Source of the DNA: a virus
Taxonomy: Duplodnaviria; Heunggongvirae; Uroviricota; Caudoviricetes
Reading direction: 5' to 3' (one strand)
Length of the DNA: 4,893 bases
Virus record (IMG/VR): IMGVR_UViG_2541047122_000019
The position numbers were made by a program, and so were the translations under genes. This document shows positions 1 to 4,893 of this stretch, piece after piece. The notes under the pieces were generated by a model that saw only the letters and a program-made list of their open reading frames with translations, was not told where the DNA came from and did no database searches. How positions within the stretch are numbered: the first letter of the stretch is position 1; each line of letters starts with the position of its first letter.

Positions 1-463
1 TCCGTTACCGGCGCGGCTTTCGGCTCTGCTGGTAAATCAGCGCCCGGTATGCAGTAACGAAATTTACCGTTCTGATTTACGCGTGCCAGGCGCCCCGTTG
101 CTGTTACGACCGCCAACGTGGAAGCAACCTTGCGAATGCTAACACCGAACTTACCCGCCAGTTCCTCACACGTTTTAGCCCCATCCTGACCGATAAACTC
201 AATCATCATGTCTGCGGTAACTTTTTGTTCGACCTCCCCGGTCAGCACATCCGGCGCTTCAGGTTGTAGTGCCTGCCCTTCGGTTACCCCGGCTTCACCT
301 TCGACAGCCAGAAACCAGGTGTGACCCGTTTTATCAACAACGCCATTTTTTTGAGTTCCCACAGTTCGTTAAGAACTTCTTCACGGCTGATATCAAGCCG
401 CGCCGCCAGTTCAACAGAATTGGCTTTACCCATCGCTTTCAGTGCATGCAATACGGTTTCCAT
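1..463 (-). CDS. Hypothetical prophage protein (winged-helix-like N-terminus); frame interrupted by an apparent 1-nt frameshift in an A7 homopolymer; 3' end beyond the window edge (possible pseudogene or sequencing error)
   Basis: ATG at 463..461 with SD GGGAGGAAG (complement of plus 469-477) 5 nt upstream. This frame gives [39 protein letters not shown] and stops at 286..284 after 59 codons. A second minus-strand frame is open with no stop from about 362 to position 1 (about 118 codons: ...[20 protein letters not shown]...[21 protein letters not shown]). The two frames join at the T7 (minus-strand A7) run at plus 346-352. Confidence 0.5.
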
Positions 464-485
464 TAAAACTTCCTCCCGGTAAAAA

Positions 486-2021
486 TCACTTCGCAATTCC
501 TGGCTGGACGACATTCGGACGCCAGCTCTCCCAGTTAAAATTCACCCATCGCCCGCCGTTCATGGTCATGCGATCCATAATCCGCTCGCCGAGCAATGTT
601 TTCATGGCCTCATAGTTCAGGTTTGTCAGCATCCCCACGCTGCGCATCGACGCTGTCCGGCGATCAACAATCTGGTGCAGCACCACCTGCTCGTTTTTCG
701 TCTCGCGCTGAATGCCAATTTCATCAAGAACCAGCAGATCTACTTCGCACAGCTCCCGCAAAAATTTTTCGCCTGACTGCCCGTCGTCATAGCTGGCGTG
801 CAGGGCGCTCATAACATCAGCCACGGTAACCACAATCACTGTCTGACCGTCTTTCAGCAGGCGATTCCCGATAGCTGCCGCTAAGTGATTCTTCCCGGTA
901 CCAGGTTTTCCGCTGAACGCAAAATTTGTACACCCGGTCATCAGTTCATCGGCGATGGATTTCGCCTGGCTTAACGCGTATCGCTGGCCGTCGTTCTGCA
1001 CCTGGTAATTCGCAAACGAGCATTTACGGTGCAACGGCTGGATGCCTGAACGATTCAGAATTTTTTCCACCCGCAACTGGCGATTCAGGCGGTTGATCTC
1101 CTCGCTACGTTTCTGGCCTTCAGCAAGTTGCCACTCGCGCCACTCCGCTACCGTTCTGAATGGGGCGGTTACATGTGGCGGGGTCAGTCGGCGGATGCGT
1201 TCCAGAACGCCGCCTGTCGCAATATTTTTCATGGTCCGTTCCCCCCTGAAGCCTGGCGGGATCGCACTGTCCGGCAACGAGACAGTGTTAACCTGTCGGA
1301 GCAACGTCTCAGGCCGAACACCTTTCGGCGCGAACAGGCCCTGGTATTCATTGGCGATGCTGTGTCGAATCACCTGCTCAGGTGTAAAACCCTGCTGACG
1401 GAATTTTTCCAGCTCCCGTATCGCCCCGTTAGCGCCCTGCTCCGTTCGAATCGGTTTTCGCAATGCCTGCCTGAACTTAACCCACTCATGCCAGAGTGTT
1501 TCCGGCAACCAGTCAGGCAGCTCGATAGCCTCCGGCTCGAATTTTTTAGACGCTCGTTTTTGGCGAGGGGGATTTAGGGGGAGATCAGTATTTATATCTT
1601 CCTCTTCCTCTGGTAACGCTTTTTGATCCGTTTGTGTAACGCTGCCAGCGTTACCTTTTCGTTTCAGTTCGCGTATTTTTGTAACTCGCTCGTTTGTAAC
1701 CGCCCGTTTTTTAGAGCTTTTTCCGTTATGACGTTCAAAGTTAGGTAGAGAAAGCCCACCGTCATTTTCGACCAGCCATCCAACCTGAATTAACGCATCA
1801 GCAAAACCAGCCATAAAAGTGATGCGGTCTATTGCACTTTTTGTAACGCCGCGAGCGTTACAATCTGCATTACCGTCTATCATTTGTTGATCCGCCCATG
1901 CCCAGAAGCGAATAACCTTCCCTAATGCGGCATCTGGATCAATATTCAGAATCTCAGCAAGCCTGAATATTTCCGGCTTATCCGGCGTAATAACCTCGAG
2001 CTTTATCCAGTTTGAAGCCAT
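486..2021 (-). CDS. Phage replication protein: N-terminal initiator domain and DnaT-like segment fused in frame to a full-length DnaC-like AAA+ helicase loader (YdaU/YdaV-like modules in one ORF)
   Basis: 511-codon ORF, ATG at 2021..2019 with SD AAGGTGA 6 nt upstream, stop TGA at 488..486. C-terminal 248 aa carries Walker [16 protein letters not shown], Walker [11 protein letters not shown], and [19 protein letters not shown] and [10 protein letters not shown], matching E. coli DnaC as recalled from memory. Residues about 175-260 end in [16 protein letters not shown], resembling the DnaT C-terminus. An internal ATG (1232..1230) with G-rich SD would give a stand-alone 248-aa DnaC-like product. 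Confidence 0.85.
1585..1712. repeat. Iteron-like repeat cluster with adjacent AT-rich stretch inside the replication gene; candidate phage origin of replication
   Basis: GTAAC-containing repeats at 1613-1620 (gtaacgct), 1636-1654 (19-bp perfect palindrome gtaacgctgccagcgttac), 1681-1688 and 1696-1703 (tttgtaac direct repeats). AT-rich run cagtatttatatcttcctcttcctc at 1586-1610. The region encodes the low-complexity acidic linker (..[11 protein letters not shown]..) between the N-terminal and DnaT/DnaC-like modules, as ori-lambda lies in the linker-coding part of gene O. Confidence 0.45.
1841..1863. repeat. Palindromic site TTGTAACGC-N5-GCGTTACAA, same family as 1636-1654 and 2034-2054
   Basis: ttgtaacgccgcgagcgttacaa read directly; 9-bp arms are reverse complements. 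Lies inside the N-terminal domain coding region of the replication gene. Confidence 0.4.
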
Positions 2022-2033
2022 TTGTTTTCACCT

Positions 2034-2054
2034 TGTAACGCTCGCAGCGTTACA
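2034..2054. promoter_or_regulatory. 21-bp palindrome TGTAACGCT-cgc-AGCGTTACA in the leader of the replication gene; candidate operator or initiator-binding site
   Basis: tgtaacgctcgcagcgttaca lies 13 nt upstream of the replication-gene ATG (2021), between the ydaT stop (2099) and the SD. Same arm sequence as the in-gene palindromes at 1636-1654 and 1841-1863. Confidence 0.45.
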
Positions 2055-2098
2055 TTTAACTGATACCGAACAAAACAATCCGGCACGATCAATTTCAA

Positions 2099-2521
2099 TC
2101 AATGCACTACGACAGAATCGCCGGGCGACCCACCACCGCTGAAATGTGCTTTCCGGTAAACGGCCTGGACTGCATCATCATGCGCATCAATTGCCGTACT
2201 CAACGCTTCCTGCGCCGCCAGTAATGCACGGCGTTCCAGGGTATCGAAGATGCAGAGTCGGTGACGCAGCTCGCGCGGAAGAATTGCCAGAACCGCAGGG
2301 ATCAGTTTCTGAATTTTTTCCCTTTGCGCTTTCGTTTCACCTTTCAACCAACGGTGATAGATATTCTGCTGATTGTTCCAGTCCTTGCCTGGTACAAGGG
2401 GCAATTCGCCGCCCCCCTGGCGCAGATATTCTTCAGTAATTGCGTTAGCGACCCACGCCTGCCCTTTTTCGGCTGCCAGGGCTAACAACACTGATTCGAT
2501 GTGCTCATGCCTGATTTTCAT
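2099..2521 (-). CDS. ydaT: YdaT-like protein (Rac/CP-933P prophage; described as a functional CII equivalent)
   Basis: 140-aa ORF MKIRHEHIESVLLALAAEKGQAWVANAITEEYLRQGGGELPLVPGKDW... matches YdaT of E. coli Rac-type prophages in length and sequence as recalled from memory. ATG at 2521..2519 with SD AGGAG 10 nt upstream. Start overlaps the stop of the upstream Cro-like gene (ATGA), and the position after cro is as expected for a cII analog. Confidence 0.75.
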   Translation of the reverse strand: MKIRHEHIESVLLALAAEKGQAWVANAITEEYLRQGGGELPLVPGKDWNNQQNIYHRWLKGETKAQREKIQKLIPAVLAILPRELRHRLCIFDTLERRALLAAQEALSTAIDAHDDAVQAVYRKAHFSGGGSPGDSVVVH

Positions 2522-2760
2522 GAATCAACCGCTCCTATGCTGTTTTCGCTATGCTTACCGTCTGGGGGGAATACATCGTCAAGTCCACAATGAGCGCCAA
2601 GCCGATTAAGGGTAGAAACAATTTTTCTGCACTCCTCTAGTCCAGGGGTACGAAAATTTGCTTCGTAATTTGCCAGTCGGCTTTGTATCCACCCTAACTG
2701 AACAGCAAGTTGTCTTTGAGACAGCCCAAGCTGTTTTCGATATGTTGAAATTTTGTTCAT
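2518..2760 (-). CDS. XRE-family HTH transcriptional regulator, Cro-like first gene of the leftward early operon
   Basis: 80-aa ORF; ATG at 2760..2758 with SD GGAGG (complement of plus 2767-2771) 6 nt upstream. HTH signature LGLSQRQLAVQLGWIQSRLANYEAN. Divergent from the repressor gene. Candidate promoter on the minus strand: -35 TTGACC (plus 2804-2809), 17-nt spacer, -10 TTTAAA (plus 2781-2786). Confidence 0.85.
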   Translation of the reverse strand: MNKISTYRKQLGLSQRQLAVQLGWIQSRLANYEANFRTPGLEECRKIVSTLNRLGAHCGLDDVFPPDGKHSENSIGAVDS

Positions 2761-2856
2761 TGAAAACCTCCGATGACAATTTTAAACACACCTTGTGTTA
2801 TATGGTCAATCTGTTTTGTGTTTTATGTAAATCACGATTCGTGATACAAGGATGCA
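2761..2856. promoter_or_regulatory. Divergent promoter/operator region of the immunity switch, between the Cro-like and repressor genes
   Basis: 96-bp AT-rich intergenic region holding the minus-strand promoter elements above and two 15-bp palindromes: AACACaccttGTGTT (2785-2799, over the -10/spacer of the cro promoter) and the perfect palindrome ATCACGAttcGTGAT (2831-2845, just upstream of the repressor SD AAGGA at 2848-2852). No convincing sigma70 hexamers were found for the repressor promoter. Confidence 0.6.
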
Positions 2857-3276
2857 ATGGAAAAAGAAAACGAAAAAATTGCCGCTAGTAGGCTCAATGA
2901 CAAAATTGCAATGCGTCTTAAAGAGCGCAGGCAGAAGCTTGGTTTATCTCAAGGAAAACTTGCTGAAATCTGCGGATGGACGCAATCGCGTATAGGTAAC
3001 TATGAGGCGGGCAGCAGAAATGTTGGAGTGCATGACGCTGTCGTATTGGGAAAGGCACTTGGCATATCTCCTCCTGAGCTCCTATTTGGAGAACAGGAAT
3101 CTTCTGAATTGTGGTTAAATGAATCCCAACGAAAACTTCTTGAGTTGTTTAACCAGCTACCTGGCTCAGAACAACAACGAATGATTGAGCTATTTGAAGT
3201 CCGGCTAAAAGAAATCGATGAGTATGTAGAAAAATATTTGAGAGGCAGGCTTAAAGATAATCCCCCACCGGAGTAA
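2857..3276 (+). CDS. Prophage repressor, XRE-family HTH N-terminal domain with helical C-terminal domain (DicA/RacR-like)
   Basis: 139-aa ORF, ATG 2857 with SD AAGGA, stop TAA 3274-3276. HTH LGLSQGKLAEICGWTQSRIGNYEAG. C-terminal LLELFNQLPGSEQQRMIELFEVRLKEI resembles the DicA C-terminal region as recalled from memory. Divergent from cro and followed by an intrinsic terminator. Confidence 0.85.
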   Translation: MEKENEKIAASRLNDKIAMRLKERRQKLGLSQGKLAEICGWTQSRIGNYEAGSRNVGVHDAVVLGKALGISPPELLFGEQESSELWLNESQRKLLELFNQLPGSEQQRMIELFEVRLKEIDEYVEKYLRGRLKDNPPPE

Positions 3277-3306
3277 TGATCTTGCTATCACAGTAATATG
3301 CCAATC

Positions 3307-3331
3307 AGCCCGCTATCAGCGGGCTTTTTTG
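3307..3331 (+). terminator. Rho-independent terminator downstream of the repressor gene
   Basis: Stem agcccgct (3307-3314), loop atc, stem agcgggct (3318-3325), followed by a T run to 3330 (gggcttttttg). 8-bp GC-rich perfect stem, 30 nt after the stop codon. Confidence 0.75.
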
Positions 3332-3359
3332 TACCATCATCATATGACACCCACCACAA

Positions 3360-3401
3360 AACACATTTCGTGTTGACATAAGAAAACGCATTGTGTTTAA
3401 T
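3360..3401 (+). promoter_or_regulatory. Near-consensus sigma70 promoter (TTGACA-17 nt-TTTAAT) overlapped by an operator-like palindrome; candidate repressor-controlled rightward early promoter
   Basis: -35 TTGACA at 3373-3378, 17-nt spacer, -10 TTTAAT at 3396-3401. Palindrome AACACatttcGTGTT at 3360-3374 overlaps the -35; a degenerate copy AAAACgcattGTGTT at 3383-3397 overlaps the spacer/-10. Same half-site family as 2785-2799. Confidence 0.55.
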
Positions 3402-3581
3402 AAGCATATCCAAACAACGCCCCACCAGAGAACGGCTGGACAATACCTCGAGTTATCCAGCCACTGAACAGGGCTAAGTAGCCAGCCTGAGGCATACGAA
3501 CATGACGGCAGTTGTTGATTGATACAAAGCGCAGTAGATAAAACGTTCCGCCACCCGGCGTTAAGGGGAAATGAGGTCAAC

Positions 3582-3734
3582 ATGGATACTATCGATCTTG
3601 GCAACAACGAATCTCTGGTATGTGGCGTGTTTCCCAACCAGGACGGCACATTCACCGCGATGACGTATACCAAAAGCAAAACGTTTAAAACCGAAGCTGG
3701 CGCGCGTCGCTGGTTAGCAAGAAACTCTGACTAA
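3582..3734 (+). CDS. Small prophage protein of the YdfA/YdaF type (about 50 aa; family name recalled from memory)
   Basis: ATG 3582 with SD GAGGT (3573-3577), stop TAA 3732-3734. Product MDTIDLGNNESLVCGVFPNQDGTFTAMTYTKSKTFKTEAGARRWLARNSD. Position downstream of the repressor matches the ydfA (Qin) / ydaF (Rac) arrangement. The track ORF starting at TTG 3519 has no SD. Confidence 0.65.
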   Translation: MDTIDLGNNESLVCGVFPNQDGTFTAMTYTKSKTFKTEAGARRWLARNSD

Positions 3735-3822
3735 TGAAATCTGGTAATTAAGGAATCCTCCACGGGGGGAGAGTGGTGCACACGCGCCGGACACAAGCAA
3801 GCATCCGGCATGCTCTTTAACA

Positions 3823-4400
3823 ATCTGGATATCCATAACAGTAAAAATCTACAGATTGCCGTTCAGTTTTCTGGCCAACTCTTCAATAGATGGAGGTGAT
3901 ACGTAATCCGGATTTTTATTCATAAGAAACTGATTTTCACAGTACAGGCACCTGCTTTTATGAAAAAATTCATATTCTCTAACCGGGAATGGCTGAAGTA
4001 TCGATACTATCTTTTGTCCAAAACATTTTGGACAAAGATGCATGATTATGCTGCCGCCGTTCACGGTTACCTCCTTCGAGTACACAAAAGTTCCCGACTC
4101 AAGTTGGCTAAGGATATAACCTTCCGTCTGAGCCTCAAAGTTTTCAAATTCTGCAATTTTAGCTTTGAGAGAAGCATTTATTTCTTGATAAGTGCCCACC
4201 AGCTCAACGAGAGACACGCATTCGCGCTGAATAGATGCAAGCTTTGAGTTCAGTTCACCAATAGCCGCATTTACTTCAGCTTGAGTTTTTGCCTCGTTCA
4301 TTAGTTTTGCAATCTGGGCGGTTTCACGAATAGCCGTCATTGCTGCCGTTAATTCAGCGATCACATTCAATACTCTTATTGTTGTTGGGGATATCCAGAT
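3823..4400. mobile_element. Putative small insertion cassette: 578 bp, AT-rich, 12-bp perfect terminal inverted repeats, flanked by a 5-bp direct duplication TAACA, carrying one ORF
   Basis: Left end ATCTGGATATCC (3823-3834) is the exact reverse complement of the right end GGATATCCAGAT (4389-4400). The match extends inward to 17/19 (left 3822-3840 vs complement of 4383-4401). TAACA directly abuts both ends (3818-3822 and 4401-4405). Hand-counted GC is about 35% at 3961-4020 against about 60% at 1201-1260. Confidence 0.4.
3849..4340 (-). CDS. Hypothetical protein, about 163 aa: N-terminal coiled-coil-like helical region and C-terminal CxxC-x22-CxxC zinc-ribbon-like motif; cargo of the AT-rich cassette
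   Basis: Minus-strand ORF with stop TAG at 3851..3849. Best start is ATG 4340..4338 (MTAIRETAQIAKLMNEAK...); alternatives are GTG 4364 or the track start 4517, whose first 59 codons lie in GC-rich sequence outside the cassette and look like a spurious extension. C-terminus has HLCPKCFGQK...(22 aa)...CLYCENQ. No recognisable SD; AT-rich codon usage. Family not recognised. Confidence 0.6.
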   Translation of the reverse strand: MTAIRETAQIAKLMNEAKTQAEVNAAIGELNSKLASIQRECVSLVELVGTYQEINASLKAKIAEFENFEAQTEGYILSQLESGTFVYSKEVTVNGGSIIMHLCPKCFGQKIVSILQPFPVREYEFFHKSRCLYCENQFLMNKNPDYVSPPSIEELARKLNGNL

Positions 4401-4541
4401 TAACAAGATCCTTGTTGTTGGGGAATAACGGGGACCACCTCGCCTGACGTGGTAAAAAGCAGGCACACAACACGAAAGCACACGGCGAGGGACACCATTA
4501 AATGGTGGCTTAAGCAATCACGCGAAGCGCAATCTGCCATT

Positions 4542-4886
4542 ATGACCGATGAAATCCCGTTAGATGATGCACTGTTACAATTGCGGGAATTTATCGACGA
4601 AAACTCCGGTGAATTTTTTGTTCAGGTCTGGGGAAATGGAGCCAACTTCGACAACACGATTTTGCGCCGTTCATACGAACGGCAGGGGATCCCCTGCCCG
4701 TGGCGTTACACCAATGATCGCGATGTAAGAACGATGGTTGCTCTGGGACTGGTGATGGATTTCGACGCAAGAACGACTATTCCATTCGAAGGTGAACGCC
4801 ATAACGCCCTGCACGATGCGCGTTACCAGGCAAAATACGTTTCAGCCATCTGGCAAAAACTGCTCCCGAGTCAGGCTGATTTTTAA
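4542..4886 (+). CDS. DEDDh (DnaQ/Orn-like) 3'-5' exonuclease-like protein, apparently lacking the N-terminal Exo I motif (truncated gene or remnant)
   Basis: ORF open from 4404; track start GTG 4449, first ATG 4542; stop TAA 4884-4886. Exo II-like motif VWGNGANFDNTIL and Exo III-like motif HNALHDARYQ (H-x-A-x-x-D-A) are present. No D-x-E Exo I motif in any in-frame upstream sequence. Weak SD at both candidate starts. Confidence 0.55.
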   Translation: MTDEIPLDDALLQLREFIDENSGEFFVQVWGNGANFDNTILRRSYERQGIPCPWRYTNDRDVRTMVALGLVMDFDARTTIPFEGERHNALHDARYQAKYVSAIWQKLLPSQADF

Positions 4887-4893
4887 TGTTCAA

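Follow-up and report, generated by a model that had tools for sequence, protein, structure and literature searches.

Among the closest described systems is the ydaU-ydaV pair of Rac-type prophages, which lies in the order repressor, cro-like gene, ydaT, initiator, DnaC-like loader and ydaW (DUF1627), and which the papers found mention only in passing. The dnaT-dnaC pair of Escherichia coli has the same gene order, with a DnaT-like end directly before a DnaC-like start. The C-terminal domain (CTD) of DnaT forms single-stranded DNA filaments at the helicase-loading site (PMC13377028). Lambda O-like proteins that carry a DnaT C-terminal motif have also been described earlier, for example DopC, which has an O-like N-terminus and a DnaT-Cter motif, is encoded beside a helicase-loader partner, and belongs to a bicomponent system, DopCE, at whose locus no iterons were found (Brezellec et al. 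2017, PMC5509034).

The window, by which we mean the whole 4,893-nt stretch of DNA that was analysed (virus record IMGVR_UViG_2541047122_000019), carries the replication module of a Rac-like lambdoid E. coli prophage (Table 1). Its genes follow the order in which Rac-type lambdoid prophages are annotated in complete E. coli genomes, it is 94–99.5% identical in nucleotide sequence to annotated ydaU|ydaV pairs, and its loader matches the YdaV-type model PRK12377 end to end. Unlike these pairs, the window has GAA for the intergenic TAA, resulting in a single ORF, and the N-terminal domain of its initiator has no Pfam DUF1376 match; in the homologue search, YdaU proteins of the DUF1376 type shared only about 24% of the 511-aa query, at about 82% identity. 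In comparison with dnaT-dnaC, the last ~95 residues of the initiator align with DnaT residues 92–179, including the terminal NTVSxPDSxIPPGFRG, and the loader aligns with DnaC residues 2–240, whereas the N-terminal domain is a phage initiator domain rather than that of DnaT. The locus shares with DopC the O-like N-terminus, the DnaT-Cter motif and the neighbouring helicase-loader partner; however, its partner protein is of the IstB/DnaC AAA+ type, and three conserved palindromes are present. The module is of an already known kind, being ydaU/ydaV-type, analogous to lambda O/P and related to dnaT-dnaC, and its fused frame is a one-step variant seen once.

Two further observations concern the surrounding prophage. 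The DUF1627 gene is frameshifted at an A7 run at window positions 346–352 (GGGAACTCAAAAAAATGGCG; strain SJ7 has AAAAGAAA), such that its ORF ends after 76 aa and homologous protein sequence resumes in another frame, and this segment is longer by 1 nt in the complete genomes that match it best. The poly-A tract is also frameshifted in strain 7_33_46A, and the gene is annotated as 'frameshifted' in the complete genome at locus L001; the lesion is due either to decay of the prophage or to an error in the homopolymer. At its right end (3700–4893) the window is 97.4% identical to O157:H7-type lambdoid prophages, and the match of the Rac-like relatives ends at 3713. Because the right end matches the former and not the latter, the prophage is a mosaic.

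Table 1. Features of the window, with positions, strand and the evidence used for each.
Feature	Position	Strand	Basis
End of DUF1391 gene	within 3700-4893		
Rv2179c-like 3'-5' exonuclease ORF, profile positions 47-177 only	4449-4886	+	
222-aa ORF without family match	3849-4517	-	
Repressor gene, divergent	2857-3276	+	ORF list, Pfam
Cro-like HTH gene	2518-2760	-	ORF list, Pfam
ydaT gene	2099-2521	-	ORF list, Pfam
Palindrome copy 1, 14 nt upstream of initiator start codon	2035..2053	.	pattern search
511-aa ORF, initiator joined in frame to loader	486..2021	-	ORF list, sequence
Lambda O-like/YdaU-like replication initiator module, aa 1-260	1242..2021	-	PHROG 2509
Palindrome copy 2, N-terminal-domain coding region	1843..1861	.	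pattern search
Palindrome copy 3, linker-coding part of initiator gene	1636..1654	.	pattern search
DnaT-C-terminal-domain-like segment, aa 168-260, ends IPPGFRG	1242..1520	-	phmmer vs PDB
SD-like AGGGGGG 5' of internal ATG	1241..1247	-	duplex with 16S 3' end
GAA codon, Glu261, where relatives have a TAA stop	1239..1241	-	alignment, column comparison
Formerly intergenic 6-nt spacer CGGACC, now Arg-Thr	1233..1238	-	sequence, alignment with relatives
Complete YdaV/DnaC-like AAA+ helicase loader, aa 264-511, own ATG 1232..1230	486..1232	-	PRK12377, 6qel, PHROG 50
DUF1627 (ydaW-like) gene, just downstream of fused ORF	462 down past position 1	-	ORF list, Pfam

The fused frame and its two halves

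On the minus strand the initiator and the loader lie in frame in one uninterrupted 511-aa ORF, and their junction reads CCA GGC TTC AGG GGG GAA CGG ACC ATG AAA AAT ATT. The first-pass annotation of this DNA had placed the ORF, its GAA codon and an internal ATG at the positions given in Table 1, and the ORF list and the minus-strand sequence bear out these coordinates. It had also pointed to the retention of the loader's own ATG and an SD-like AGGGGGG. Both are kept, with the ATG in frame and a predicted duplex of the SD-like sequence with the 16S 3' end of -10.2 kcal/mol, compared to -10.7 for the TAA version. The base that differs from relatives is window position 1241 (G on the minus strand, C on the plus strand), and the T>G change extends the G run of the SD-like sequence from five to six. 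Residues 261–263 (ERT) correspond to the former stop codon plus the 6-nt spacer.

The first 260 residues are covered by a profile match to PHROG 2509, 'replication initiation protein' (1–260 against 1–277 of 277, E=2.8e-87). In relatives the initiator is a separate protein of 260–266 aa, annotated as its own CDS in loci L001, L002, L003, L005, L017 and L018. Residues 1–260 had no Pfam match, and DUF1376 (PF07120) was not matched at E<=0.01 anywhere in the 511-aa ORF; a 262-aa relative (P0122) was likewise without a PF07120 match at E<=0.01. The protein is laid out as an N-terminal domain, a charged linker, and a DnaT-CTD-like C-terminal domain ending IPPGFRG. This last domain showed its resemblance to the DnaT CTD only in a phmmer search of the PDB, where it matched the DnaT CTD structure 2ru8 (E=3e-5) and residues 92–179 of DnaT in 9zbt_D (E=1e-4). 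The alignment reaches the last residue of DnaT, with ...NTVSEPDSQIPPGFRG (residue 179) opposite the ...IPPGFRG end in the window. The Pfam DnaT DNA-binding domain PF17948 was not matched, and the DnaT equivalog model NF002770 scored 16.4 bits, over the last 19 residues only and below its cutoff of 201. The upstream module had been called DnaT-like at first pass; this description fits its last ~95 residues, but the module as a whole is a phage initiator. It is best regarded as a lambda O-like initiator with a DnaT-like C-terminal domain, not as a DnaT homologue over its whole length, and the analogy suggests that this domain may have a role similar to that of the DnaT CTD.

The acidic linker contains a 6-nt (Glu-Glu) length polymorphism in a GAGGAAGAGGAAG repeat, at about 1597–1611 of the window and around codon 137. 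The short form is found in the window, L002 and L003, and the long form in L001 and L005; this length polymorphism accounts for the spans of 1536, 1542 and 1548 nt among relatives.

The loader half is complete. PRK12377, the NCBIfam YdaV-type model, was matched over 1–248 of 248 positions with 509.3 bits against a cutoff of 389, in agreement with the earlier reading of the last 248 residues as a whole DnaC-like loader. Further matches were obtained to Pfam PF01695 (IstB_IS21; 68.7 bits against 24.1), to the DnaC-like helicase loader family PHROG 50 (E=2e-83), and to E. coli DnaC in PDB 6qel (E=5e-74). The translation contains a Walker A (GKPGTGKNH) and a Walker B (DLLVLDEIG) motif, both of which align with the motifs of DnaC in 6qel. 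The N-terminal region of DnaC binds DnaB, and residues 265–320 of the ORF match a 56-residue PDB chain, 6kza_C, 'DNA replication protein DnaC' (residues 2–55, E=1.8e-4). The equivalog model for chromosomal DnaC, NF005931, scored 305.7 bits and its cutoff of 357 was not reached. The loader is a phage paralogue and not DnaC itself. The termini of DnaT and DnaC that had been given at first pass were right, since DnaT in the PDB ends ...PPGFRG at residue 179 and the loader aligns from DnaC residue 2.

A pattern search of the window found three perfect copies of a 19-bp palindrome, GTAACGC-N5-GCGTTAC, compared to 0.02 expected. The copies are about 200 bp apart and not clustered, and both intragenic copies read in frame as xNAxxVT. 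In all loci that have this N-terminal initiator allele they lie at unchanged relative positions, with invariant arms and variable spacers, and loci with a different initiator allele lack them. We also observed additional GTTAC/GTAAC half-sites (1613, 1681, 1696) at 1613–1700, around the palindrome at 1636–1654, in the stretch that codes for the basic-acidic linker. The origin of lambda sits in the linker-coding part of gene O. The palindromes and half-sites are good candidates for initiator-binding sites, or for an origin placed within the initiator gene like that of lambda.

Two genes as the ancestral arrangement

In four close E. coli relatives the site of the GAA codon is occupied by TAA, followed by the identical 6-nt spacer and ATG, and the surrounding sequence is identical. 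Column comparison with the nearest complete genome, that of E. coli 7_33_46A, found two differences in 1536 nt, namely the T>G change and the 6-nt Glu-Glu polymorphism, whose short form in the window is common to other relatives. Of 5426 complete E. coli genomes, 414 contain a 61-mer centred on the site, none of them at 100% identity. We also searched these genomes by megablast with a 33-mer centred on the G (GCCAGGCTTCAGGGGGGAACGGACCATGAAAAA); all of its 28-nt seed words contain the G, so that any match requires it. The GAA-junction 33-mer, tried with CGG, CAG and CTG spacers, had no match in the 5426 genomes, and its TAA version had 31 exact matches.

The same arrangement was found in wider samples. 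A degenerate-pattern scan of GTDB species representatives (one genome per species) recovered eight true homologues, from E. coli, Shigella flexneri, E. ruysiae and Citrobacter braakii, all eight with a stop codon (TAA; TGA in Citrobacter), 6 nt and ATG; L008 from the same scan was discarded as a chance match. Metagenome contigs contained two TAA junctions and no GAA junction. Four phage records span the pair, comprising three vB_EcoS-… phages (e.g. vB_EcoS-666R9) at 95% identity and the 8-kb 'Escherichia phage Rac' at 94%, and all four have two annotated genes, for an initiator of 260–266 aa and a YdaV of 248 aa, with 6 nt between them. The first-pass annotation had predicted that GAA replaced a stop such as TAA, and had proposed an alignment of the junction with homologous prophage operons. 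The alignment does place a stop codon at the GAA position, in close relatives, GTDB homologues, metagenome contigs and virion-derived phages alike. As judged from these junctions, two separate genes are shown to be the ancestral arrangement, which is kept in every relative examined.

It was conceivable that the 511-aa ORF belongs to a single-gene family whose homologues are uniformly one continuous ORF with no stop, but the homologues have the stop, and we rejected this explanation on the basis of the stop at the junction in all relatives and the GAA junction in 0 of 5426 genomes. A HMMER scan of 1.84 billion protein representatives gave 20,469 matches, and each of the best 150 of these covers residues 1–262 or residues 264–511 and none both, except for the fragment P0175. 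This sole match crossing the junction is a 198-aa fragment with out-of-frame ends, and was rejected as evidence of a fusion family. Because none of the best 150 representatives spans both halves, this one damaged fragment aside, the ORF does not represent a fused gene family.

A word-index search also found two proteins, P0073 and P0087, with Pfam DnaT and IstB domains in one chain. Together with P0136–P0138, these are chromosomal dnaT-dnaC pairs read as single ORFs of 409–425 aa in public assemblies, each on one contig. Their junctions are frameshift-like (…PPGFRGNDENVGDL… or …PPGLGVTMKNVGDL…) and differ between members. P0073 and P0087 were therefore rejected as a natural precedent for a DnaT-DnaC fusion, the varied junctions and the single contig for each pointing to sporadic lesions or errors. 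In P0163, the YdaU C-terminus is joined out of frame to ydaV. The tight junctions of the dnaT-dnaC and ydaU-ydaV pairs are repeatedly merged by small lesions or errors. The sporadic dnaT-dnaC ORFs resemble the window in that a tight junction has become one ORF by a small lesion, each form on one contig; they differ from it in their frameshift-like junctions, and in being chromosomal genes rather than a prophage pair. One further protein in the search, P0196 (827 aa), has four tandem DnaC/IstB-like AAA+ modules, each with a Walker A motif (three GCGKTH, one GSGKTH), and is unrelated to the fusion.

These comparisons bear on the idea that the fusion is functional and selected, with a tethered initiator-loader and a free loader from the internal start as the normal replication machinery. 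The frame is open, the internal SD and ATG are intact, the initiator and loader work in one process, and the junction falls at the edges of the regions that match structures, with DnaT aligned to its last residue and DnaC from residue 2, all of which would be consistent with such a design. However, no homologue, close or distant, is fused, the virion-derived phages with a module of 95% identity have two genes, and the allele was seen once and is a single mutational step from the two-gene form. In addition, the stop right after ...PPGFRG is kept from the host DnaT to the phage proteins, and this conservation suggests that a free C-terminus is the normal state. We consider a selected fusion very improbable, and the fused frame is evidently neither a conserved nor a selected architecture.

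Stop-loss mutation or base-call error

A search among 153 billion gene positions placed the exact 511-aa protein on one contig only, the 3185-nt Logan SRR710098_514, whose sequence is that of window positions 398..3582 without a difference. Since the window and the Logan contig are different assemblies that share the base, the G at 1241 is not an artefact of one assembler. The two assemblies are nevertheless not independent, because they probably derive from the same read set.

Both a stop-loss mutation and a sequence error had been offered as readings in the first-pass annotation, and both draw support from the stop in all relatives and the private nature of the GAA allele. Taken on the alignments, the fused frame results from either a private mutation or an erroneous base call, and does not represent a new kind of protein. 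On balance, though with limited confidence, we favour a genuine, very recent and private stop-loss mutation from TAA to GAA at window position 1241. That the neighbouring DUF1627 gene is frameshifted fits a prophage in decay. A real SNP is not strongly favoured over an error, because this is the sole private substitution in 1.5 kb and the local substitution rate is too low.

There is a substantial possibility, short of probable, that the isolate has TAA and two genes, and that the T after five G was miscalled as G in both assemblies. Among the systematic errors described for Illumina data, the strongest motif is GGT miscalled as GGG, a T>G change that is direction-specific and replicable (PMC3295828), and the site, GGGGGT, fits this motif. 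The change from GGGGGT to GGGGGG on the coding strand is of the commonest Illumina systematic miscall type, which counts against a real mutation. The variant is also confined to one read set, and over 1536 nt no other substitution separates the window from its nearest relative. A second disruptive change, the one in the A7 run of the DUF1627 gene, lies about 890 nt away (346–352 compared to 1241) and is likewise in a homopolymer, and the sporadic fused or frameshifted dnaT-dnaC and ydaU-ydaV junctions in other public assemblies point in the same direction. On the other hand, direction-specific miscalls seldom prevail in a consensus at normal coverage, and the GGT to GGG motif is that of Illumina, whereas the sequencing platform of SRR710098 was not found in the literature. 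The Logan contig is continuous through the site with no break, although this is weak evidence because bubbles in an assembly graph can be popped. Finally, homopolymer lesions can be real, as the DUF1627 poly-A tract is frameshifted in the complete genome L001 too.

Expected consequences of the proposed stop loss, and their significance

If the mutation is genuine, the change of one base of the stop codon, from TAA to GAA, would have fused the initiator and loader genes. Stop loss gives a single 511-aa frame because the spacer is 6 nt, as in all eight GTDB homologues, and both genes are in the same frame; with the stop, spacer and ATG sharing this frame, any sense mutation of the stop would produce an in-frame fusion. 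Ribosomes on the initiator gene would then read through to make an initiator-Glu-Arg-Thr-loader protein, and no initiator with a free conserved ...PPGFRG end would be made. A free loader may still be produced by internal initiation, because its SD and ATG are essentially unchanged. In the two-gene form, a stop 6 nt before the ATG may permit termination-reinitiation coupling, which we assume from the spacing and which would be lost in the GAA allele. The initiator plausibly binds the origin through its N-terminal domain and prepares single-stranded DNA through its DnaT-like domain; YdaV would then load DnaB of the host. The prophage is probably under weak selection, because the next downstream gene is also frameshifted. 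It is unlikely, in our estimation, that the G is real and that the 511-aa initiator-ERT-loader protein is made in addition to a free loader in a prophage replication module that still works.

The fused frame carries little biological weight, being a private single-base allele, or an error, in a prophage replication module of a well-known type. It may matter more for annotation. The 90%-identity protein cluster of the 511-aa ORF has 1716 members and a 262-aa representative, and mixes initiator-like proteins (262–266 aa) with YdaV loaders (246–248 aa). In this cluster the chimeric ORF chain-links two unrelated families, which is an artefact of the database; stop-loss ORFs of this kind can in this way join families without relationship and propagate wrong annotations.

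The GAA allele is also a ready-made construct, because the ydaU-ydaV junction, with its stop, 6 nt and ATG in one frame, is one mutation from fusion. It could be used to probe the need for the free C-terminus that is common to DnaT and the phage initiators, and the function of a tethered initiator-loader. These questions are relevant because the mode by which DnaT recruits DnaB/DnaC is not yet known (PMC13377028). Should the fusion be made and replication be working, the allele would be natural proof that an initiator of the DnaT-CTD type tolerates tethering to a DnaC-type loader, and that this initiator needs no free ...PPGFRG C-terminus.
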